In this document: positions 3,027 through 43,261 of the stretch, one piece after another
Numbering within the stretch: position 1 is the first letter of the stretch
Layout: each line of letters opens with the position of its first letter
Origin: Chthoniobacterales bacterium
GTDB lineage: Bacteria; Verrucomicrobiota; Verrucomicrobiia; Chthoniobacterales; UBA10450
Length of the DNA: 64,000 bases
Assembly (NCBI GenBank): GCA_965217735.1
Contig: CBDCJE010000001.1
Span: 149,313-213,312 of the forward strand
Direction of reading: 5' to 3'
The notes under the pieces: model-generated
What the model was told of the DNA's origin: nothing
The model's input: only the letters and a program-made list of their open reading frames with translations
Databases searched by the model: none
Position numbers and translations under genes: made by a program

Positions 3027-4004
3027 ATGGATTCGCAACCGCTCGATTTCGAAAAGCCCATCCTGGAACTGCAACGCCGGTTACAGGAGCTCAAGTCCCA
3101 CTCCGATAAGCACGAGATCGATTTCGATTCCGAGGTCGAGTCGATGGAAATCAAGATCCGCGAAACCCGGCGACAGATTTACGACAACCTGACCGCCTGG
3201 CAGCGGGTGCAGATCGCCCGCCATGTGCAGCGGCCGTTCTCGCTTGATTACATCGCCCGCTGTTTCACCGAATGGGTCGAGCTGCACGGCGACCGCGTCT
3301 TTGGCGACGACAGAGCGATGCCTTGCGGCCTGGCCAAAATCGGCAACCAGCGCTGCGTCGTCATCTCGCAACAGAAAGGCCGCGACACCAAGGAAAACGT
3401 GAAGCGCAATTTCGGCTGCGCTTACCCGGAAGGTTACCGCAAGGCGATGCGGGTCATGCGGCTGGGCGAAAAATTCGGCCTGCCCGTCATCGCGCTGATC
3501 GATACCCCGGGCGCTTTTCCCGGGGTCGGCTCGGAGGAACGCCACATCGCCGAAGCCATCGCGGTCAACCTGCGCGAAATGATGACTCTGCGGGTGCCGA
3601 TCATCGCCTGCGTCATCGGCGAAGGCGGCTCGGGCGGCGCGCTCGGGATCGGGGTGGCCGATCGGGTGCTCATTCTGGAAAACGCCTATTACTCCGTCAT
3701 CAGCCCGGAGGCCTGCTCGGCCATTTTGTGGAAGGATCGGAAACACGCGCCGGAAGCCGCCGAAGCGCTCAAGCTCACCGCGGAGGATCTGAAACGGCTC
3801 GGGGTGATCGACGAAATCGTGACTGAGCCGGAGGGCGGCGCGCACCGGGATCATGACCTGGTGGCGGCGAATCTCTGCGCCGCTCTGCGCCGCAACCTGA
3901 AGCGCGCGCTCGACCTGCCGATCGACGACCTGCTGAAGGAGCGCTACAAGAAATTTCGCAAGCTGGGCAACTTTGCCGAACCCCGGGTGCGCAACGGCGC
4001 CTAA
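3027..4004 (+). CDS. accA: Acetyl-CoA carboxylase carboxyltransferase subunit alpha
   Basis: 325 aa. Typical AccA blocks: LDFEKPILEL, WQRVQIARHVQRP, IDTPGAFPGVGSEERHIAEAIA, GEGGSGGALGIGVADRVLILENAYYSVISPE. Confidence 0.95.
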   Translation: MDSQPLDFEKPILELQRRLQELKSHSDKHEIDFDSEVESMEIKIRETRRQIYDNLTAWQRVQIARHVQRPFSLDYIARCFTEWVELHGDRVFGDDRAMPCGLAKIGNQRCVVISQQKGRDTKENVKRNFGCAYPEGYRKAMRVMRLGEKFGLPVIALIDTPGAFPGVGSEERHIAEAIAVNLREMMTLRVPIIACVIGEGGSGGALGIGVADRVLILENAYYSVISPEACSAILWKDRKHAPEAAEALKLTAEDLKRLGVIDEIVTEPEGGAHRDHDLVAANLCAALRRNLKRALDLPIDDLLKERYKKFRKLGNFAEPRVRNGA

Positions 4005-4007
4005 CGA
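3999..4007 (-). repeat. TCGTTAGGC 9-mer, exact copy (GCCTAACGA on +)
   Basis: Contains the accA TAA stop (4002-4004) and, on the other strand, the esterase TAG stop (4003-4001). Confidence 0.95.
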
Positions 4008-4861
4008 ATCGAGAAAGTTCCGGCGCTCGAGCCCGGGAACTGGCTCCGCGTCCCGGGCAGGCGCGGCGGATAGAGGAAGCGCAGAACCGCGTCGAAGCGC
4101 GCCGCCCACGCGCCTTCGCTGTGGCTGCCTCCTTCCACTTCGGTGTATTGCAGGTCGTCGTCCAAACGCCAGCCGCTCTCGACCAGGCTTTCGCGCAGGA
4201 GCCTTGCTCGTTCCCAACCCGGCTCCGCCGTGCCGGTATCGAGCCAGATCTGGAGCGGCAGCTTCTCCGGCAGCTCCCCCACCATCCGGCAGATGACGCA
4301 TTCATCCCACCAAATCGAGGGCGAGAGCACGGCCAGCCGGGTGAAGACCTGCGGATACCAGAGCCCGAGGGCGAGCGTAGCCAACCCGCCGAGCGACGCC
4401 CCGCCCAGCCCGGTCGCTTCCGCCTCCGGCCGCGTCCGGTAGGTGCGATCGACGAATGGCTTTAGCTCCTCGATCAAAAAACGCGCATACCTCCGCAACC
4501 CGCCGCGGCTGCGCTTTTTGCGTTTCGCCGTCGTATCGATCACCCCGCGGGTCGGCGCGTATTCGTGAATCCGGTTCTCGCCCGTATTGGCCACGGCCAC
4601 GATGATGAGCGGCTCGATCCATTTTTTCTCGATCAGGCGCTGGGCCGATTCATCCACGCCCCATTCCACTCCGGCATAGGAAGTGGCGGCGTCGAAGACG
4701 TTTTGCCCGTCGTGCAGGTAGAGCACCGGGTAACGCCGCCTGGTCGCGCGGCGATATCCCGGCGGCAGGTAGACCAGCACGTCGCGTTCGTTGCGCAAAA
4801 GGCGGGACTTGAACTGCGGATGCTGCTGGATGTTTCCGGTCAGCGTGTGCTTGTCGTCCAT
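4001..4861 (-). CDS. Esterase-family alpha/beta hydrolase (putative esterase / esterase D type)
   Basis: 286 aa. YPVLYLHDGQNVFD, and GLGGASLGGLATL as the serine nucleophile elbow. Its stop overlaps the accA stop by 4 nt (convergent). Confidence 0.8.
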   Translation of the reverse strand: MDDKHTLTGNIQQHPQFKSRLLRNERDVLVYLPPGYRRATRRRYPVLYLHDGQNVFDAATSYAGVEWGVDESAQRLIEKKWIEPLIIVAVANTGENRIHEYAPTRGVIDTTAKRKKRSRGGLRRYARFLIEELKPFVDRTYRTRPEAEATGLGGASLGGLATLALGLWYPQVFTRLAVLSPSIWWDECVICRMVGELPEKLPLQIWLDTGTAEPGWERARLLRESLVESGWRLDDDLQYTEVEGGSHSEGAWAARFDAVLRFLYPPRLPGTRSQFPGSSAGTFSIR

Positions 4862-4988: not shown

Positions 4989-6005
4989 CTAGGTCAGCAC
5001 ATAGCGGCCGGTCTTCTTCGTCCCCACCCGCCGCACCAGGCCGGCCTTGATCAGCGGCCGGAGCAGATCGAGCGCGCCCTGCTTGGAAATGCCGATCCCG
5101 TCCCAGATCTCACGCGGCGTCAGCGCCTTCTCTTCGCGCAGCAAATGCAGCAGCTGCTCCTGCTTCGGGCGCAGGACGAGCTTCTCTTTCCCGGCCCGGG
5201 CGGTCAGTTTTTGCACCCGGCTCCAGACCCGCTCCAGGGTCGCGCGCAACGCTTCCGCATTGTATTCCAGCCAACTGGTCAGGTCGCCTTTTTCTCGCTC
5301 CACCCGGGCCAGCGCTTCGTAATAACGGGGCCGGTCTTCCCAATAAAATTCGTCGATCGAGAAAAGGTGATGGCCATCGAAGCCGCGCCGATACAGTTCC
5401 CAGAGGCTGAGCATGCGCCCGGTGCGTCCATTGCCATCGGCAAAGGGATGAATGGTTTCGAATTGATGATGGACAATGGCCGAGCTGAGCACGGGCGAAA
5501 GCCGCACCGCCTCCTTGTTCCACCAGCCGAGGAGGGCGGTCATCATCGGCTGCACCCGCTCCGGCGGCGGCGGCACGTAACCACCCACCCGCACCCGGAT
5601 GGTCCGGTATTTCCCGGCTTCGCCCTGGTCCATCACCTCGCCCGCCATGATGCGGTGGAGCTTGAAGACCTCGCGGTGCGCGACCGAGCGCAGCTGGGCG
5701 TTCTTCTCCACAAAGCGCAGGCCGGCAAAATAATTCGCCACCTCCCGCCGGGCGCGTTGCGCGGTGGCCGGAATCTCGCGCCCTTCTTCGATCGCCCGGA
5801 CCTGCTCGAGGGTGAGCGGGTTGCCTTCGATCGCGGTCGAGGAATGGGCATTGCGAATGCGCGTATCCTTCTGCAAAGCCGGGATCCACGGTACCTGCAC
5901 CGCGGCCGCCAGGATGCGCTCGCGCAACGCCGCCACCTGCTCCACTTCCGTCAGCAGCGCCGGGGAGATGATGTAGGGCGGGACGAAGTTCACGGAGTAA
6001 GTCAA
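4989..6005 (-). CDS. Fic/DOC family protein (class II, intramolecular inhibitory motif) with C-terminal winged-helix
   Basis: 338 aa. Fic active-site motif HPFADGNGRTGR. N-terminal STAIEGN matches the (S/T)xxxE(G/N) inhibitory helix. TTG start at 6005 is uncertain. Confidence 0.88.
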   Translation of the reverse strand: MTYSVNFVPPYIISPALLTEVEQVAALRERILAAAVQVPWIPALQKDTRIRNAHSSTAIEGNPLTLEQVRAIEEGREIPATAQRARREVANYFAGLRFVEKNAQLRSVAHREVFKLHRIMAGEVMDQGEAGKYRTIRVRVGGYVPPPPERVQPMMTALLGWWNKEAVRLSPVLSSAIVHHQFETIHPFADGNGRTGRMLSLWELYRRGFDGHHLFSIDEFYWEDRPRYYEALARVEREKGDLTSWLEYNAEALRATLERVWSRVQKLTARAGKEKLVLRPKQEQLLHLLREEKALTPREIWDGIGISKQGALDLLRPLIKAGLVRRVGTKKTGRYVLT

Positions 6006-7128: not shown

Positions 7129-7211
7129 ATCTCCTTCCCTTGGCCGCAGCGGTCCTGTCCGCGCAAAACTTTTCGACCTCGTTGCGCTTCTCGGCTTAAC
7201 TTGCCCGACGC

Positions 7212-8462
7212 ATGAGCATCGAAGTCAAAATCCCGCCCGTCGGCGAATCCATCTCCAGCGGCGTCGTTTCCGTCTGGCACAAGAAATCGGGCGAATACGT
7301 CGAGGCGGGAGAAGTCCTGCTCACCCTCGAGACCGATAAAGTGTCGACCGAGATCACGGCCGAAAAAGCCGGCCTGCTCGAGACCAAAGTCGAGGAAGGC
7401 CAGGAAGTGAAGATCGGCGAAGTCGTGGCCTTGATCGATGACTCCGCCAGCGCGCCCGCGCAAGAGGAAAAAGCGGCCGCGCCCAAACCATCCGCCCCGC
7501 CCGCCGGCGAGGCCAAACCTGCCGGTAAACGTTCCGCCAACGCCGAGGTTCTTTCCCCGGCGGTCAAGCGCCTGACGACGGAAGAAAAAGTCGATCCGGC
7601 TAAAATCAGCGGCACCGGCAAAGGCGGCCGCGTGACCAAGGGCGACGTCATCTCACACCTGAAAACGGAGCCGGCGGCGGAGACGCCCCCGACCGACGAC
7701 CAGGAGAAACCGCGCAAAAGTAAAAAGACGGCCAGCTCGGCGCCGGTCGACGACGATGGCGACGCCCGTTTTACCCGCAAGAAGATGTCGCCGCTCCGGC
7801 GCAAGATCGCGGCCCAGCTCGTTATGGCGCAGCAGACCGCGGCCATTCTCACTACTTTTAATGAGTGCGACATGTCCGAGGTGATGGCTTTTCGCAAAAA
7901 GGCGCAGGAGAAATTCCAGGCCGATCACGGGATCAAACTCGGCTTCATGTCCTTCTTCATCAAAGCGACGGTCGAGGCGCTCAAGGCCGTGCCTTCGATC
8001 AACAGCCGCATCGAAGGCGACGATTTCATCCTCAACCATTTCTACGACATCGGAGTCGCGGTCGGGACCGAGCGCGGCCTGGTCGTGCCGGTGGTGCGCG
8101 CTGCCGATCAAAAGAGTTTTGCCGATCTGGAACGCGACATCGCCGATTACGCAGCCCGGGCGCGTGACGGGAAAATCAAGATCGAAGATCTGCAGGGTGG
8201 GAGCTTCACCATTTCCAACGGGGGCGTTTACGGCTCGCTCATGGGAACCCCGATCTTGAATCCGCCGCAGAGCGGAATTCTCGGCATGCACACCATCCAG
8301 CAGCGCCCGGTCGCGCTGAATGGCGAAGTGGTGGTGAGGCCGATGATGTATCTCGCGCTCAGCTACGATCACCGTGCGGTCGATGGCAAAGAGGCGGTCA
8401 CTTTCCTGATCAAGGTGAAGGAAGCGATCGAAAATCCGACCGGCCTGTTGCTCGATCTCTAG
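7212..8462 (+). CDS. sucB: Dihydrolipoyllysine-residue succinyltransferase (E2 of 2-oxoglutarate dehydrogenase)
   Basis: 416 aa. Lipoyl domain ([10 protein letters not shown]), Ala/Pro linker, E3-binding domain (SPAVKRL...[13 protein letters not shown]), catalytic domain ending [17 protein letters not shown]. Confidence 0.93.
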
Positions 8463-14230: not shown

Positions 14231-15220
14231 GTGGCTGAATTTCGCCTCACGGTTCTCAATCCGGGCGGTCGCGATCCGAGGCAGGATTTCGGTCCCGGCA
14301 TCGCCGCCCCTAACGACGCCGAACACGCTCCGGTAAACTTTCACGGCTACGCTGCCTGCACCCGCGGGGCCTTTCATCGCGAGGTGAAACTGGCGGTGGC
14401 GGAGGGCGCGCCGGTGCTTTTGCTCCTGCGGGGCGACTTCAAGGCGAGCGAGCGGGCGCTGCATGAATTGAAGAGCCGCGGGCTGCCGGTGGTGATTTCG
14501 CTCAAGGAAACCGGCCTGCACCAGATCGAGCAACAGCTCGGGGATCCGAAGCGGGCCGCCCGTTTCCGCAGCCTCGTGCAGGAAGCCGACGGCTGCCTCG
14601 GCGCGACCCCGGAAGCGATCCAGTTTTATGGCCGCGGCCGCTTTATTCCTACGCCCTACCCGATGGCCGAGAGCGGCTGGGATTTTTCCCGTTCATTAGG
14701 GGAAAGGAAGGGGATTTTTGTCGGGACGCGGGAATGGGATATCCCGTCGCGGCATCATCTTGCGGCTCTGGCCCTGGCGCTGCAAACCGGGGAAGCGGTC
14801 ACTGTTTTCGATCCCCGGCCCCGGCTTTGCCGCAAGCGCCTCAGCGCCCTCGGCCTGCCGCTCGACCGGCTGAACCTCATCGAAGGCCGCCTGCCCTATC
14901 GCGATTACCTGGCCGAGATGGCGCGGCACAAGCTCGTCCTGCAGGCCGACCGCAGTGCGGTCCCGGGACAAGTGGCGGGCGACGCCCTGCTCTGCCGCAT
15001 GCCCTGCCTGGGAGGCGACGGCGCGATCGACCGCATCGGCTTTCCGCGCACTTCTGGTTTTGGCCGTTCGTTAGGGGAACTGGCCGGGCTGACCGCGCGC
15101 CTCCTGCGCGATCCCGCCTTTTACGCCGAGATCACCTACGAATCGCAGCAGCAGGCGCGCGAGCGGCTCGATTTTGCGGTGGTCGCGGCGCAACTGGCCG
15201 AGTTCTTCCGCGAGTTGTAG
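14231..15220 (+). CDS. Conserved hypothetical protein (possibly glycosyltransferase-associated)
   Basis: 329 aa, GTG start. Coding-like GC3. Lies next to a GT4 gene. No diagnostic motif recognised. Confidence 0.6.
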   Translation: MAEFRLTVLNPGGRDPRQDFGPGIAAPNDAEHAPVNFHGYAACTRGAFHREVKLAVAEGAPVLLLLRGDFKASERALHELKSRGLPVVISLKETGLHQIEQQLGDPKRAARFRSLVQEADGCLGATPEAIQFYGRGRFIPTPYPMAESGWDFSRSLGERKGIFVGTREWDIPSRHHLAALALALQTGEAVTVFDPRPRLCRKRLSALGLPLDRLNLIEGRLPYRDYLAEMARHKLVLQADRSAVPGQVAGDALLCRMPCLGGDGAIDRIGFPRTSGFGRSLGELAGLTARLLRDPAFYAEITYESQQQARERLDFAVVAAQLAEFFREL

Positions 15221-15279
15221 GGCGGGCGCTTCGCCTGCCGAGATCGACCAACTGCGCAGGCGAAGCGCCCGCTCTACAA
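15215..15279. terminator. Long palindromic element / bidirectional hairpin at a convergent gene junction
   Basis: Arms TTGTAGGGCGGGCGCTTCGCCTG (15215-15237) and CAGGCGAAGCGCCCGCTCTACAA (15257-15279), 22/23 complementary. The TAG stops of both flanking genes lie inside the arms. Confidence 0.6.
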
Positions 15280-30297: not shown

Positions 30298-31065
30298 CTA
30301 TTCGTTAGGCACAGCGGCCTGCACGATCTGGGCAAAGCTGCGCGGGTCGAGACTCGCGCCGCCGACCAGCGCCCCGTCGATATCCGGCTGCGAGAGGAGG
30401 GTGCGGGCGTTATCCGGCTTTACACTCCCGCCGTACTGGATCCGGATTTTCTCCGCGGTCGCTTCGTCCGAGATCTCGCGCAGGCATTGGCGAATGAAAG
30501 CGTGCGCTTCCTGCGCCTGCTCGGCGCTGGCCGTTTTGCCGGTGCCGATGGCCCAGACCGGCTCGTAGGCGATGACGGTCTCGAGCAATTCCTTCGCTTC
30601 GACATCGGCCAGGCTGCCGCGTAGTTGCGCGGAGAGAACTTTTTTGACTTCGCCCTTTTCGCGCTGGGCCAGCGTCTCGCCCACGCAGAGGATCGGCCGC
30701 AACATCTCCTCCAGCGCCGCCCGCACCTTGCGGTTGACGATTTCATCCGTCTCGCCAAACATCGCTCGCCGTTCGCTGTGCCCGAGGACGACATACCGAA
30801 CGAAAAGCTCGCGCAACATCGCCGGGCTGATCTCGCCGGTGTAGGCGCCACTCCGCTCCCAGTGCATGTTCTGCGCGCCCACCTTGATGCTCTGCGCCTG
30901 GGTCAGCAGCTCCGTCACTTTCGGGATGGCGGTGAAAGGCGGCACGATCACGATCTCGACTTCATCGAGGCCGTTGATCTCGCGCAGGAAGGTGGTGATG
31001 AAGGCTTCCGACTCGCTCTGAGTCATGTGCATCTTCCAATTCGCGGCGATGATTTTCTTTCTCAT
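30298..31065 (-). CDS. tpiA: Triosephosphate isomerase
   Basis: 255 aa. IAANWKMH, VVLGHSERR, YEPVWAIGTG, YGGSVKP. Confidence 0.95.
   Translation of the reverse strand: MRKKIIAANWKMHMTQSESEAFITTFLREINGLDEVEIVIVPPFTAIPKVTELLTQAQSIKVGAQNMHWERSGAYTGEISPAMLRELFVRYVVLGHSERRAMFGETDEIVNRKVRAALEEMLRPILCVGETLAQREKGEVKKVLSAQLRGSLADVEAKELLETVIAYEPVWAIGTGKTASAEQAQEAHAFIRQCLREISDEATAEKIRIQYGGSVKPDNARTLLSQPDIDGALVGGASLDPRSFAQIVQAAVPNE
30302..30310 (+). repeat. TCGTTAGGC 9-mer, exact copy
   Basis: Last three sense codons of tpiA (CCT AAC GAA, then TAG). Confidence 0.95.
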
Positions 31066-31073
31066 GAAATTTT

Positions 31074-32285
31074 TTACTTCTCGGTCAACGCCGCCACGCC
31101 CGGCAGCTCCTTGCCCTCGATCAATTCGAGCGAGGCCCCGCCGCCGGTGGAGATGAAAGTCATCTTATCGCCCAAGCCGGATGCATTCACCGCCGTGACC
31201 GAATCGCCCCCACCGATGATGGTGGTGGCATCCGCCTCCGCCAGCGCTTCGGCGATCGCTTCCGTCCCGGCGGAGAACTCGCGGATCTCGAAAATCCCGG
31301 GCGGGCCGTTCCAGAGAATGGTTTTGGCCTTCGCGATTTCGGCTTTGAAAAGAGTGATCGTTTCCGGGCCGATGTCGACCGCGATCCAGCCGTTAGGCAC
31401 ATCGTAGTCGTGTGAAACCCGGCCGCTGTGGCGGGTGGCAGCGCCCGGCTTGATTTCTTCCGCGCCTAACAAATCGATCGGCAGGAGCAGGCGGACGTTT
31501 TTCTCTTTCGCCAGCGCGATCAGTTCCTGGGCCAGGCCGAGCTTATCCTTTTCCACCCGGCTGCTGCCCATGTGCACGCCCTCAGATTCGAGGAAAGTAT
31601 TGGCCATCGCGCCGCAGATCAAAATGGTGTCGGCCTTCTCCATCAGCGCCTTGATCACGCCGATTTTATCGGAAACCTTCGAGCCGCCGAGGATGACGAG
31701 GAACGGCTTGGCCGGGTTGGCCAGTTCTTCGTGCAAATATTTGAGTTCCTTTTCCATCAGGAATCCCATGGCCGATTGTTGCACGAACTTGGTCACGCCG
31801 GCGGTCGAGGCGTGCGCCCGATGGGCGGCGCCGAAAGCATCGTTGACGTAGATCCCGTCGCTCAAGGCGGCGAGCGATTCGGCAAACTTGGGGTCGTTCG
31901 CTTCTTCCCCAGCGTAGAAACGGACGTTTTCGAGCAGAGTGACGTCGCCTTCTTTCATGTCCGCGACGATTTTCTCAGCGTCGGCCCCCATGCAATCGTG
32001 GCTGAAAGCGACCGGGTGATCGATCATGTGATGCAGCGCCATGCCGATGGGTCGGAGCGAATATTTCTCCACCGGCTGCCCTTTCGGCCGCCCAAAATGC
32101 GCCATCAGGATTGTCTTGGCGCCGTGCTCGCGCAGGTAATTGATCGTCGGCAGCGACTCGCGCATCCGGGTTTCATCGGTGATCACGACCTGCCCGTCGC
32201 GTTCTTCAATTGGGACGTTGAAATCGACCCGGACCAGGACTCGTTTCCCGCGCACTTCCAGATCGCGGATGGTTAATTTGCTCAT
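31074..32285 (-). CDS. pgk: Phosphoglycerate kinase
   Basis: ORF 31074..32507 trimmed to ATG 32285 (MSKLTIRDLEVRGKRVLVRVDFNVP...). 403 aa. GGGDS and STGGGASLE blocks. Confidence 0.95.
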   Translation of the reverse strand: MSKLTIRDLEVRGKRVLVRVDFNVPIEERDGQVVITDETRMRESLPTINYLREHGAKTILMAHFGRPKGQPVEKYSLRPIGMALHHMIDHPVAFSHDCMGADAEKIVADMKEGDVTLLENVRFYAGEEANDPKFAESLAALSDGIYVNDAFGAAHRAHASTAGVTKFVQQSAMGFLMEKELKYLHEELANPAKPFLVILGGSKVSDKIGVIKALMEKADTILICGAMANTFLESEGVHMGSSRVEKDKLGLAQELIALAKEKNVRLLLPIDLLGAEEIKPGAATRHSGRVSHDYDVPNGWIAVDIGPETITLFKAEIAKAKTILWNGPPGIFEIREFSAGTEAIAEALAEADATTIIGGGDSVTAVNASGLGDKMTFISTGGGASLELIEGKELPGVAALTEK

Positions 32286-32734
32286 TCTCCAGCTCCTTCC
32301 TCGTAAACGTGCTCGTGCTCCTGCTCGTGCTCGAGCGGCGCAGAATAAACTCCTTCGTCCTCGCGCAAAAAATCCGCCCGCCCGGAAAACTTCCGCAACA
32401 TTCCCATAAGCATCTGCACAATTCGGCTGAGTTGTTCTTTGGCAGGCGAGACGCGTTCTTCCGCGATCAATCCCCTTACGACCAACGCATCGAGACAAGC
32501 CGCACACTCCAGGGCCGAGCCTCTCGCGATCTCAAGAAATCTCGCCCGATCCCGGCCCGAGAACTTGCCGTTCCCTTCCGCGATATTGAGCGGGATGCTG
32601 GTCGAAGCACGGTCAAGTTGGTCTTTGACCGCCGCCCGTGCGTTGATCCCAACGCGGATCTCGCCAGCCCAGCCGCAGAAGGCGATGGCTTCGCGATAAA
32701 CGTCCAATTTTTCGTGGTCGAAGAAAACTTTCAT
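32282..32734 (-). CDS. Four-helix-bundle protein (23S rRNA intervening-sequence protein / Avd-like family) with acidic His-rich tail
   Basis: 150 aa. KLDVYREAIAF...LDRASTSIPLNIAEGNGKFSGRDRARFLEIARGSALECAACLD is the family signature. Tail EHEQEHEHVYEE. Its TGA overlaps the pgk ATG (ATGA). Confidence 0.8.
   Translation of the reverse strand: MKVFFDHEKLDVYREAIAFCGWAGEIRVGINARAAVKDQLDRASTSIPLNIAEGNGKFSGRDRARFLEIARGSALECAACLDALVVRGLIAEERVSPAKEQLSRIVQMLMGMLRKFSGRADFLREDEGVYSAPLEHEQEHEHVYEEGAGE
32309..32335 (+). repeat. 27-nt inverted-repeat arm (3' end of the four-helix-bundle gene)
   Basis: GTGCTCGTGCTCCTGCTCGTGCTCGAG. 24/27 identical to the reverse complement of 32746-32772. Confidence 0.6.
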
Positions 32735-32745
32735 GCCTCAGAGAA

Positions 32746-32772
32746 CTCGATCACGAGCAGGAGCACGATGAC
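32746..32772 (-). repeat. 27-nt inverted-repeat arm (between the gap stop and the four-helix-bundle start)
   Basis: Minus-strand reading GTCATCGTGCTCCTGCTCGTGATCGAG. Partner of 32309-32335. Confidence 0.6.
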
Positions 32773-32775
32773 GAA

Positions 32776-33774
32776 CTAACCGACCAGCATCTCCAGCATC
32801 TGCACGCAACGATTGCTATAACCCCACTCGTTGTCGTACCACCCCACCACCTTGACGAATTTCCCCTGCGCCATGGTCAACAGGCTGTCGAAGATGCAGG
32901 AATGCGGGTTGCCCACGATGTCATGCGAGACCAGCGGCTCGTCGGTGTACTCCAGCACGCCTTTGTAGCTGGCGTCGCCGGCGGCTTTTTTGAAAGCCGC
33001 ATTGATCGCTTCCGCAGTGGTTTCTTTCTCCAGGATGGCGGTGAAATCAGTCACTGATCCATCCGGGGTCGGGACGCGGAAAGCGCCGCCGTTGAGCTTG
33101 CCTTTCAACGCCGGCAACACTTCGCCGATCGCTTTCGCCGCCCCCGTGCTCGAGGGGATGATGCTGACCGCGGCCGCGCGCGCCCGGCGCAGATCCTTGT
33201 GCGGCAGATCGAGAATGCTCTGGTCGTTGGTGTAGCTGTGAATCGTGCTCATGAAGCCGTTCACGATGGTGAAATTGTCCTGCAACACCTTGGCCAGCGG
33301 AGCCAGGCAGTTGGTCGTGCAGCTGGCGTTGGAGACGATGTTCATCTTGGCCGCGTCGTAAATGTCGTCGTTGATCCCGAGACAGATGGTCGCGTCCGGG
33401 TCTTTCGCCGGGGCGCTGATCAGCACTTTTTTCGCTCCACCCTGGGTGATGTGCAGCTCGGCTTTCCCGCGTTCGGTAAAGAAGCCGGTCGACTCGAGGA
33501 CCACGTCCACGCCCAGATCTTTCCAGGGCAATTTAGCCGGGTCGCGCTCTTTCATGATCCTGATCTTGTGCCCGCGCACGATGATGTTCTCGTCGTCGTA
33601 GCCGAGCTCGCCGTCGAATTTTCCATGGACCGAATCCCACTTCAGGAGATGCGCGAGAGTGTGGGTGTCGGTCAGATCGTTGATCCCGCGGACCTGCGCG
33701 ACCTGATCCGGGGACATGGCGCGCAAGACATTGCGCCCGATGCGGCCGAAGCCGTTGATGCCGATATTAGCCAT
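32776..33774 (-). CDS. gap: Glyceraldehyde-3-phosphate dehydrogenase
   Basis: ORF 32776..33987 trimmed to ATG 33774 (MANIGINGFGRIGRNVLRA...). Active site SNASCTTNCLAP. 332 aa. Confidence 0.95.
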   Translation of the reverse strand: MANIGINGFGRIGRNVLRAMSPDQVAQVRGINDLTDTHTLAHLLKWDSVHGKFDGELGYDDENIIVRGHKIRIMKERDPAKLPWKDLGVDVVLESTGFFTERGKAELHITQGGAKKVLISAPAKDPDATICLGINDDIYDAAKMNIVSNASCTTNCLAPLAKVLQDNFTIVNGFMSTIHSYTNDQSILDLPHKDLRRARAAAVSIIPSSTGAAKAIGEVLPALKGKLNGGAFRVPTPDGSVTDFTAILEKETTAEAINAAFKKAAGDASYKGVLEYTDEPLVSHDIVGNPHSCIFDSLLTMAQGKFVKVVGWYDNEWGYSNRCVQMLEMLVG

Positions 33775-34552: not shown

Positions 34553-34564
34553 CCACCGCAACCT

Positions 34565-34591
34565 CGTCATCGTGCTCATGCTCGCGATCGA
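34565..34591 (+). repeat. Solitary third copy of the 27-nt repeat seen around the four-helix-bundle gene
   Basis: GTCATCGTGCTCATGCTCGCGATCGAT. 24/27 identical to the minus-strand reading of 32746-32772. Intergenic, 87 nt upstream of the HMA-like gene. Confidence 0.5.
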
Positions 34592-34677
34592 TTCTCCCGA
34601 CCCGATGACGAATGCGAGGACGACGGAGGATGAAGGTGCGACCCACGCAGCGGGCGCATGAGTCGCGAAGATAAGAC

Positions 34678-34938: not shown

Positions 34939-34994
34939 TAGCGCAAGCTTCCAGCTTGCTCGTTCTCTCGACTGCAAGCTGAAAGCTTGCGCTA
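34938..34994. terminator. Long hairpin at a convergent gene junction (HMA gene / aguA)
   Basis: Arms TAGCGCAAGCTTCCAGCTTGC (34938-34958) and GCAAGCTGAAAGCTTGCGCTA (34974-34994), 20/21 complementary. The right arm contains the aguA TAG stop. Confidence 0.55.
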
Positions 34995-36029
34995 GCCTGG
35001 CTGCTGCTGGGTCAGGCAGTGAAATGCGCCCAGCCCCCAGATCAGCTCGCGGCAGTCGATCGGGACAATTTTCCGGCTCGGGAACGCCCGCTGCAAAACC
35101 TCCACCGCTGCTCCATCGCCCGGATCGGCGAACGTCGGCAGGAGCACGCTCGTGTTGGCGACGTAATAGTTGGCATAACTGGCCGGCAGACGCAGCCCCT
35201 CCCGCACGATCTTTCGCGGCATCGGCAAGGCGGTGATTTCGAGCGATTCCCCCCCAATCGCTAGGCCACGCAGGCGTTCCAGATTGGCTTGGAGCGGCGC
35301 GTAATTCGTGTCCGATTCGTCCTCTTCCAACACCGTCACTACCGCGCGTTCGCCGATGAAGCGGGTCAGATCATCAATGTGCCCATCGGTATCGTCCCCT
35401 TCAATCCCGTCGCCCAACCAGAGGATCTCGCTCACCCCGAGATAATCGCGCAGCCGCTGCTCGATCTCTTCCTTGCTCAACTGCGGATTGCGATTCGGGT
35501 TGAGCAGACAACTCTCGCTCGTCAGCAGCGCGCCGGCTCCGTTCACCTCGATCGAGCCACCCTCTAAAATCATGCGCGGATAATAAACCGGCAGCCCGAG
35601 CTTCTCGGCGATGCGGGTCGGCACCACTTCATCGAGATCGCAGGGCGGATACTTCCCGCCCCAGGCGTTGTAATCCCAATCCACGATCGCCAATCGCGGC
35701 TCCTCCGCCCGGGTCAGAAAAATCGGCCCATGATCCCGGCACCACGGCTCGTTCGTTGGGATGAGATGGAAGGTCAGCGCCTCCCCGGCCAGCCCGTCGA
35801 GCGCGGCGCGCGCCTCCGCCTCATGCGCGCCATTGCAGACGTTGATATTAACCGGCTCGGACTCGAGCAGCGCCGCCACCATTGCACGCAGGGTCGGCAC
35901 CACCCGATCGTAGGACCCAGGAAAACTGATCCCTTCCCGGCGCGGCCAGGAAAGCCAGGTGGCGGCGTGCGGTTCCCATTCGGCCGGCATGCGATAACCG
36001 AGCTGTGTCGGCGTTTTTTCGTTAGGCAT
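34992..36029 (-). CDS. aguA: Agmatine deiminase (peptidyl-arginine deiminase, Porphyromonas type)
   Basis: 345 aa. GYRMPAEWEPHAATWLSWP, WCRDHGPIF, DGHIDDL. C-terminal GAFHCLTQQ catalytic Cys block. Confidence 0.85.
   Translation of the reverse strand: MPNEKTPTQLGYRMPAEWEPHAATWLSWPRREGISFPGSYDRVVPTLRAMVAALLESEPVNINVCNGAHEAEARAALDGLAGEALTFHLIPTNEPWCRDHGPIFLTRAEEPRLAIVDWDYNAWGGKYPPCDLDEVVPTRIAEKLGLPVYYPRMILEGGSIEVNGAGALLTSESCLLNPNRNPQLSKEEIEQRLRDYLGVSEILWLGDGIEGDDTDGHIDDLTRFIGERAVVTVLEEDESDTNYAPLQANLERLRGLAIGGESLEITALPMPRKIVREGLRLPASYANYYVANTSVLLPTFADPGDGAAVEVLQRAFPSRKIVPIDCRELIWGLGAFHCLTQQQPG
36019..36027 (+). repeat. TCGTTAGGC 9-mer, exact copy
   Basis: Codons 2-4 of aguA (ATG CCT AAC GAA). 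Confidence 0.95.
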
Positions 36030-36105
36030 AAAAATCGTTCCTCCTGCTCCTGCTCCTGATCGTGCTCTTCTGCATCTGAAAAAACGAGGAGCAGGAAAAG
36101 GAGCG

Positions 36106-43196: not shown

Positions 43197-43261
43197 TTGT
43201 AGGGCGGGCGCTTGGCCAGCCGTGATTCTGGAACTGGGCAGGCGGAGCGCCCGCCCTACAA
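43197..43261. terminator. Palindromic element / bidirectional hairpin at a convergent gene junction (same family as 15215-15279)
   Basis: Perfect 16-nt arms TTGTAGGGCGGGCGCT (43197-43212) and AGCGCCCGCCCTACAA (43246-43261), 33-nt loop. Confidence 0.6.

Follow-up and report, generated by a model that had tools for sequence, protein, structure and literature searches.

A gene cassette enclosed by an inverted repeat separates gap from pgk

The 64,000-nt stretch of DNA from a soil verrucomicrobium (Chthoniobacterales) studied here (referred to as the window; assembly GCA_965217735.1, contig CBDCJE010000001.1, positions 149,313 to 213,312) carries a small gene of the four-helix-bundle family PF05635 between the glycolytic genes gap and pgk. 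This gene is bracketed by an inverted repeat, and the comparison with relatives shows that both form a discrete unit which, at one and the same junction, is present, absent, swapped for an allele of deep divergence, or pared down to a hairpin alone. With moderate confidence, we interpret this unit as a gene cassette of the intervening sequence (IVS) type, housed in a messenger RNA (mRNA) instead of a ribosomal RNA (rRNA).

The genes are read from the minus strand in the order gap, four-helix-bundle gene, pgk and tpiA, and the whole element, of about 490 nt, occupies precisely the interval from the gap stop to the pgk start. The gene order, the coordinates and the overlap with pgk described in a first-pass annotation of this DNA were all recovered. 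The features of the locus are the following:

32776 to 33774, minus strand: gap (glyceraldehyde-3-phosphate dehydrogenase) coding sequence, from the list of open reading frames (ORFs); stop TAG at 32778-32776
32746 to 32773, minus strand: 5' arm of the inverted repeat, made of CTCNTG hexamers, beginning 2 nt past the gap stop
32736 to 32739, minus strand: GAGG, a likely Shine-Dalgarno sequence for the four-helix-bundle gene, placed immediately within the stem, as read from the sequence
32282 to 32734, minus strand: 150-aa four-helix-bundle gene (PF05635 / TIGR02436, by profile matches)
32308 to 32335, minus strand: 3' arm of the inverted repeat, made of CANGAG hexamers and corresponding to codons 134-143 (LEHEQEHEH)
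32286 to 32307, minus strand: terminal codons of the cassette gene with GGAG motifs, the probable pgk ribosome-binding site
31074 to 32285, minus strand: pgk (phosphoglycerate kinase) coding sequence, 71-89% identical to the Pgk of 80 Chthoniobacterales genomes
30298 to 31065, minus strand: tpiA (triose-phosphate isomerase) coding sequence, 8 nt past pgk

The gap gene is 80% identical to the genes with Gp_dh_N/Gp_dh_C domains (Pfam) of loci L001 and L002. The TGA of the four-helix-bundle gene overlaps the pgk ATG (ATGA, 32285-32282) and a scan of the cassette found neither promoter-like nor terminator-like sites within it, which makes it likely that gap, the cassette, pgk and tpiA are co-transcribed and translationally coupled; the co-transcription with the glycolytic genes claimed in the first-pass annotation is thus plausible on sequence grounds. 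No Rfam family was detected in the window at gathering scores, nor in 32100-32950 at E up to 1. The window is also devoid of rRNA genes, and the position of the element, between gap and pgk, sets it apart from an insertion into helix 25 or 45 of a 23S rRNA.

A repeat search retrieved the two arms as 28-nt sequences, 89% complementary and 410 nt apart, which upholds the bracketing repeat that had first been noticed as a 27-mer. At up to three mismatches, this 27-mer occurs in the window at these two sites only, with an expectation of 0.00 in 100 shuffles. When the 539-nt RNA from the end of gap to the start of pgk is folded, the long-range stem is present in both the minimum free energy and the centroid structures (z -2.35), an outcome that agrees with the stem proposed for the operon mRNA.

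The gap-pgk junction in relatives of the window

The junction was compared in 80 genomes taken solely because their Pgk came closest to that of the window, a choice made to avoid a bias toward the cassette. All of them are metagenome-assembled genomes of Chthoniobacterales/Spartobacteria (Pgk 71-89% identical). One of the 80 loci had no readable junction and the other 79 were classified as follows:

33 of 79 genomes: four-helix-bundle gene present
14 of 79 genomes: clean junction of 0-7 nt
1 of 79 genomes: 22-nt spacer
6 of 79 genomes: hexamer arms with no intact gene
25 of 79 genomes: unrelated inserts

The gene is therefore sporadically distributed among close relatives (33 junctions with it versus 46 without it), and every junction state is found among the closest relatives of the window. 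The clean junctions include those of L090 and L095, whose Pgk are respectively 89% and 87% identical to that of the window. In every case, the insert takes the exact place of the spacer that separates the gap stop from the pgk ATG. No target-site duplication was found when occupied and empty junctions were compared: empty sites read TAG-CA-ATG or TAG-AGCG-ATG and the flanks of the occupied sites are not duplicated. In occupied junctions the cassette starts about 40-55 nt past the gap stop. In 81 of 95 distinct cassettes, the stop codon is no more than 8 nt away from the pgk start, and in 36 of them the two overlap by exactly 4 nt, as expected of an ATGA overlap. A search from the protein side agrees with this picture, since all the roughly 65 homologues at least 65% identical in 80 metagenomic loci sit between gap and pgk, in most cases with tpiA coming next, and have both arms. 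Synteny without the repeats had been named as an observation that would speak against a cassette; the gene is indeed syntenic in many relatives, but always together with the repeats.

The six junctions with arms and no intact gene are relics. In L093, what is left is a 92-nt hairpin (dG -45), and the relics of L096 and L100 retain the first codons of the gene (MKTLFDHE) before jumping to the 3' arm. The deletion in L100 fuses the N-terminal GACCACGAG (DHE) with the GACCACGAG of the tail, which suggests that the gene was lost by recombination between short direct repeats GACCACGAG.

The unrelated inserts belong to three further families of palindromic repeats or consist of one (ATGACGA)n hairpin and one 128-aa ORF, and the gap-pgk junction acts as a hot spot for structured elements. 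The spacers of relatives hold at least four other repeat families that form hairpins: (GGAGTR)n in L121 and L124; (ACAGGATT)n in L113, L125, L128, L140, L144 and L166; a palindrome GTCATCCTGAGCG...CGCTCGGGATGAC in L092, L094, L108, L110, L123, L127, L129, L133, L141, L148, L153, L154, L156 and L157; and (ATGACGA)n in L130. The 128-aa ORF (MGRIV.K/RV..EN...), which has no Pfam match, fills the junction in L117 and L120 (about 5615-6000).

The second codon of pgk (32282-32280 in the window; equivalent positions in L089-L107) begins with A (AGC, AGT, AAC or ACG) wherever a cassette or relic is present among the close relatives compared, and an A in this position permits the ATGA overlap. In several empty junctions this codon is GCC. 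The junction of L097 is empty, yet its pgk codon 2 is AGC, possibly as the result of a precise loss.

The cassettes are exchanged as units

The evolution of the cassette was compared with that of its flanks in 54 distinct gap-cassette-pgk loci. The distances of Gap and Pgk are well correlated (Pearson 0.79), whereas those of the small protein and Pgk are less so (0.45). Among the pairs that differ by less than 5% in Pgk, the distance between small proteins is bimodal, at either 2-5% or about 30%. For instance, the DNA of L089/L091 and of L052/L161 is 97-100% identical in gap and pgk, and about 60% identical from the last gap codons to the pgk ATG. The limits of the exchanged segment are sharp: in 18 pairs, identity averages 0.83 over the 30 nt adjoining the cassette, and one 30-nt window further out it has already risen to 0.97 toward gap and 0.90 toward pgk. 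All these relatives are metagenome-assembled, so that the linkage of alleles to flanks is as reliable as the assembly, but every boundary falls inside one contig.

Where it can be measured in the gap-pgk lineage, the ratio of non-synonymous to synonymous divergence (dN/dS) of the small protein is 0.07-0.2; this protein is under purifying selection. Synonymous divergence (dS) is saturated in most allele pairs. The gap-pgk lineage is old and specific to its site, and its insertion is not recent; the alleles are old and encode a constrained protein, yet different alleles stand on near-identical backgrounds. Several routes may explain such an exchange: site-specific replacement, RNA-templated copying, or the persistence of old alleles with flanks homogenized by recombination.

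Sister lineages occupy the junctions of other operons

Homologues that are at most 63% identical are paralogues located elsewhere than between gap and pgk, and they also match the PF05635 and TIGR02436 profiles. They are found at nuoF-nuoG, at nuoH-nuoI, upstream of a gene for a beta-CASP RNA-metabolizing hydrolase (RNase-J-like), and upstream of a gene of the purine-nucleoside-phosphorylase family (MTAP-like). In a distance tree, the proteins cluster by insertion site. Two loci, L080 and L082, have two cassettes in one nuo operon. The nuo-operon cassettes, at nuoF-nuoG and nuoH-nuoI, are located as follows:

L080, 1685-2086 and 5058-5480
L082, about 356-781 and 3654-4052
L169, 10001-10417

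The nuoH-nuoI lineage is highly conserved, its top 120 matches being 85-99% identical, one of them labelled Candidatus Udaeobacter, a genus that is among the most abundant soil bacteria. On a 1.37-Mb contig, a palindromic element is found before nuoEF, at nuoF-nuoG and at nuoG-nuoH, and a four-helix-bundle cassette at nuoH-nuoI.

The arms are matched hexamer repeats

Equivalent arms are present in all related cassettes, with a mean stem of 27 nt and 84% complementarity. They are built from three hexamer dialects (given here as 5'/3' arm), each of which is complementary inside its own cassette: CTCGTG/CACGAG together with CTCATG/CATGAG at gap-pgk; CTCTTG/CAAGAG at the nuoF-nuoG, RNase-J-like and MTAP sites; and CTCTTC/GAAGAG, a polypyrimidine/polypurine pair, at nuoH-nuoI. 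The arms have thus stayed complementary while their hexamers changed. The number of hexamers per arm is broadly distributed, with a mode of 4 under strict and 6 under relaxed counting.

Cognate arms pair better (mean -48.8 kcal/mol) than non-cognate ones (-45.0 kcal/mol), with none of 20000 permutations being as good, and the variable position of the hexamer is paired in 71% of cognate versus 56% of non-cognate comparisons (chi-square p ~3e-5), although these statistics treat related sequences as independent and their p-values are thus optimistic. The hexamer flavors of the two arms are likewise correlated (r 0.5-0.7). Among stem mismatches, G.U (73) outnumbers A.C (47; p 0.02), which points, if weakly, to pairing at the level of the sense RNA.

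The relation of the 3' arm to the reading frame is informative. One lineage translates it as EHEQEH and a variant as SKSTSK; at the RNase-J-like site the stop codon falls within it, and at nuoF-nuoG in L080 it comes past the stop. Since the arm stands in differing frames, across or past the stop, it must be a nucleic acid feature, and the odd tail of the protein is a by-product of it. Such a (D/E)HE-rich tail was present in 20 of the 20 homologues read, mostly as (D/E)HEQEHEHDYE.

It could be argued that there is no element at all and that the low-complexity codons of an acidic tail happen to be complementary to the upstream spacer. Both arms consist of repeated hexamers, and a (GAGCAC)n sequence will pair with any (GTGCTC)n. 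Nevertheless, the shuffle expectation is zero and the window has only five such tracts in 64 kb, namely the two cassette arms, two nearby gene-less hairpins and a tract within a coding region that does not fold. Moreover, the arms are found in every orthologue and paralogue, with matched dialects, and they outlast the gene as hairpins. The comparative data thus refute chance complementarity, to which we assign almost no probability, and the repeats are not the generic sequence that had been considered a risk: they are scarce and go together with this gene family or with its relics.

Gene-less hairpins and other repeats

Hexamer hairpins devoid of a gene are also found away from the junction. 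The two of the window are:

36041 to 36103, minus strand: gene-less hexamer hairpin directly upstream of the Shine-Dalgarno sequence and ATG of an agmatine-deiminase-like gene (34992-36029); dG -33.2 kcal/mol, z -5.1
34557 to 34640, plus strand: degenerate gene-less hexamer hairpin between a GDSL-lipase-like gene (stop 34552) and an HMA-domain gene (start 34678); dG -31 kcal/mol, z -1.1

The first one ends in GGAGGA just before the ATG; it has the appearance of a cassette relative that lacks the gene and provides the ribosome-binding site for the gene that follows. The 5' half of the second one closely resembles the 5' arm of the cassette, but its fold is no better than those of shuffled sequences (z -1.1). 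A different, REP-like repeat family (repetitive extragenic palindromic, REP) is represented in the window by a 65-nt palindromic element, TTGTAGGGCGGGCGCTT...AAGCGCCCGCCCTACAA, with two copies (15215-15279 and 43197-43261) that are 83% identical.

In the 913 kb of DNA selected by Pgk, 116 hexamer tracts were counted. Four-helix-bundle genes adjoin 59 of them, and most of the remainder form paired gene-less hairpins. In 14 genomes (L130, L132, L135-L137, L139, L142, L143, L146, L147, L149-L151 and L155), such a hairpin of about 90 nt stands right past the pgk stop (about 7210-7310), with a sequence that equals the arms of one class of gap-pgk cassettes. It was considered as a recent copy of the cassette of its own genome, an option that was rejected as the hairpin is conserved even where the arms of the cassette differ.

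These hairpins bear on the possibility that the element moves as DNA. In that case, the arms would be terminal inverted repeats or recombination sites for an enzyme encoded elsewhere, either in the manner of a miniature inverted-repeat transposable element (MITE) or by the targeting of hairpins, and the RNA stem would be incidental. The presence/absence polymorphism, the gene-less derivatives, the unit-wise replacement with boundaries of at most 30 nt and the attraction of the junction for several other palindromic families would all be congruent with such an origin. Yet, occupied and empty sites reveal no target-site duplication, arm length and hexamer number vary freely, unlike the ends recognized by enzymes, there are no identical copies elsewhere in the 64-kb window (at up to three mismatches), each lineage is confined to one site and the excess of G.U over A.C favors, weakly, a pairing of RNA. 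A DNA-level mobile element seems quite improbable to us. A classical MITE is a weak candidate, with no target duplication and with lineages that are bound to their sites, and the MITE-like part of the first-pass reading finds no support in any sign of hopping between sites.

A conserved protein of the 23S IVS family

The small protein matches PF05635 (E 3.7e-22, 79 bits against a curated cut-off of 33.8) and TIGR02436 (E 2.6e-21, 75.9 bits against a cut-off of 24). Among solved structures, it matches 2GSC (E 1e-7 by single sequence and 3e-10 as a profile) and 2RLD (E 1e-3). Its initial assignment to the four-helix-bundle proteins of 23S IVS is borne out by these matches. The 2GSC entry has five chains and has been described as a homopentameric toroid (PMC4990558). 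A fit of five hexamers per arm to such a pentameric ring was entertained and dropped, given the broad counts of hexamers. The family is still called functionally uncharacterized in recent papers (PMC11270868; PMC4990558).

A protein search retrieved more than 100 homologues with 68-88% identity, mostly from soil samples, and the named ones bear the labels Spartobacteria, Chthoniobacterales or Verrucomicrobia. The PF05635 family is large, with 6239 representative clusters (50% identity) that match the protein at E up to 0.001. The best of these representatives (P0122-P0270) are mostly about 250 aa long with two tandem four-helix-bundle domains, an architecture that is absent from the loci examined. 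A profile of close homologues found no further copies of the gene in the window, PADLOC and PHROGs had no match to the protein, and no relative of it was found in viral contigs, so that it corresponds to none of the defence or phage families known there. Its purifying selection and deep allelic diversity argue that the protein is active.

PF05635 proteins resemble Avd, the accessory protein of diversity-generating retroelements (DGRs), and this Pfam family is the most frequent one near DGR reverse transcriptases (PMC10053308). The protein could thus be a DGR accessory that came to lie in this operon by chance. However, every locus has the same housekeeping neighbours (gap, pgk, tpiA, a GDSL lipase, an HMA gene and an agmatine deiminase), none with a reverse transcriptase domain on record, and the window has no direct repeat of at least 40 nt of the template/variable type. 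The profile search of PDB sequences that reached 2GSC and 2RLD fell short of Avd; the common fold proposed for both proteins is therefore supported by the literature but not by this search. For this locus, a DGR component is effectively refuted and we deem it extremely improbable, and the DGR link that the first-pass annotation had wished to exclude can be set aside for the loci and the window searched.

Another option is that the cassette is a domesticated regulatory module: a host hairpin would set the stability or translation of gap versus pgk-tpiA, much as REP-type elements do, and the protein would be an RNA-binding autoregulator acting on the (GAGNNN)n arm, the whole being kept for its benefit to the host. 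The purifying selection on the protein speaks for this option, as do the precise stop-to-start fit with its conserved overlap on the pgk start and the conservation of like gene-less hairpins past pgk in 14 genomes and upstream of another gene of the window; a toroidal relative such as 2GSC (E 3e-10; PMC4990558) could also suit the binding of a repeated motif. Nevertheless, the unit is dispensable, as very close relatives (Pgk 87-89%) have clean junctions of 2-4 nt, and unrelated hairpin elements hold the same junction in other genomes. Alleles that are 30% apart on near-identical flanks would be unusual for a housekeeping regulator, and the numbers of hexamers per arm give no clean match to a pentamer. 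We regard this option as rather unlikely.

A proposed IVS-type cassette in mRNA

The interpretation of the unit as an IVS-type cassette in mRNA, already put forward in the first-pass annotation, is strengthened by the clean junctions, the gene-less hairpins, the swaps of whole units on near-identical flanks and the sister cassettes of the nuo and other operons. According to this interpretation, a promoterless PF05635 gene, enclosed by a stem of about 28 bp with 5' (CUCNUG)n and 3' (CANGAG)n arms, would be transcribed with gap, pgk and tpiA. The stop/start overlap would keep pgk translationally coupled to the upstream ORF, as it presumably is to gap in empty junctions. The arms would pair in the transcript and loop out the gene, the stem being the feature under selection. 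Since 23S IVS elements have a similar size and layout, RNase III probably cuts this stem; such a cut would split the gap message from that of pgk-tpiA and free the cassette RNA, thereby limiting the cost of the insertion. Ribosomes on the 3' arm would compete with the stem, a competition that could itself be regulatory, and the protein probably binds nucleic acid, perhaps the arms of its own element.

Several points weigh against this interpretation. We infer stem formation, cleavage and co-transcription alike. The stems are imperfect, their arms stand 410 nt apart across a translated ORF, so that ribosomes would compete with their pairing, and the covariation effects are modest and count related sequences as independent. 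The sharp boundaries could stem from old balanced alleles with flanks homogenized by recombination, and neither a mobility enzyme nor target duplication or movement between sites was found in the material analysed. The AlphaFold model of the protein, built from a 30-sequence alignment, is all-helical but poor (predicted local distance difference test score, pLDDT, 53.5). Finally, the strong purifying selection and deep allelic diversity suggest a useful or conflict-related function of the protein, which lies beyond what a purely selfish reading explains.

A bolder scenario, which we hold to be very doubtful, would make PF05635 proteins the maintenance or propagation factor of widespread stem-bounded IVS elements, lodged in rRNA helices and in the junctions of essential operons. 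The protein would bind the hexamer arms carried by its own transcript, in the way that Avd interacts with DGR RNA and reverse transcriptase, and would then promote RNA-templated copying into empty alleles or shield the element from host RNases. If true, this scenario would account for the gene-less hairpins and for replacement boundaries of at most 30 nt, as well as for lineages tied to one site and for alleles that are deeply diverse yet under purifying selection.

Discussion of the PF05635 family has so far centred almost exclusively on rRNA intervening sequences and DGRs, and here the gene-in-a-stem design appears in mRNAs of central operons (glycolysis and complex I) of Chthoniobacterales. 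The searchable literature, which omits most subscription journals, yielded no account of IVS-type cassettes within protein-coding operons, nor of these hexamer arms. The locus offers natural controls, as empty, occupied, swapped and hairpin-only alleles are available on near-identical backgrounds. They make it possible to test the role of the IVS protein, the excision by RNase III as a general means to tolerate insertions, and the spread of the cassettes.

Comparison with known systems

The cassette protein and the Avd of DGRs belong to related four-helix-bundle families (PMC10053308). Unlike DGRs, the cassette locus has no reverse transcriptase, template repeat or variable repeat.

The cassette has more in common with REP, bacterial interspersed mosaic element (BIME) or MITE-like repeats, which form hairpins and lodge between the genes of operons. 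Its gene-less derivatives look exactly like them and other palindromic families are found at the same junction in relatives. Yet, the cassette holds a conserved protein gene inside its hairpin, its lineages are site-specific, no target duplication was found for it and its copy number is low in the DNA sampled.

The gap-pgk message of Zymomonas mobilis undergoes segmental mRNA processing of the glycolytic operon. The junction is the same one, and in both cases a structured element could give the two halves of the message different stability. To our knowledge, the structure of Zymomonas contains no gene and shows no presence/absence polymorphism.

The closest parallel is offered by the ORF-bearing 23S IVS of Coxiella burnetii and Leptospira. 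The two systems differ in several respects: the cassette lies between protein-coding genes of an mRNA operon and not in 23S helix 25 or 45; its arms are hexamer repeats; its 3' arm is translated and its ORF is probably translationally coupled to the downstream gene; this ORF is under purifying selection, whereas the Coxiella one is reported to be decaying; and excision by RNase III is presumed for the cassette. Nevertheless, both carry in their loop a gene of the same protein family (S23p / PF05635) and both have terminal inverted repeats that form, or in the cassette are predicted to form, an enclosing stem of 20-30 bp. The Coxiella IVS is 428-444 nt long, bears the S23p ORF in its loop and has a 28-bp stem with one mismatch and one bulge, at the middle of which RNase III cleaves (PMC4990558); these dimensions come close to the roughly 490 nt and the 28-nt, 89% complementary stem of the cassette. 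Finally, like the cassette, 23S IVS are sporadically distributed among relatives with signs of horizontal exchange (PMC4990558).

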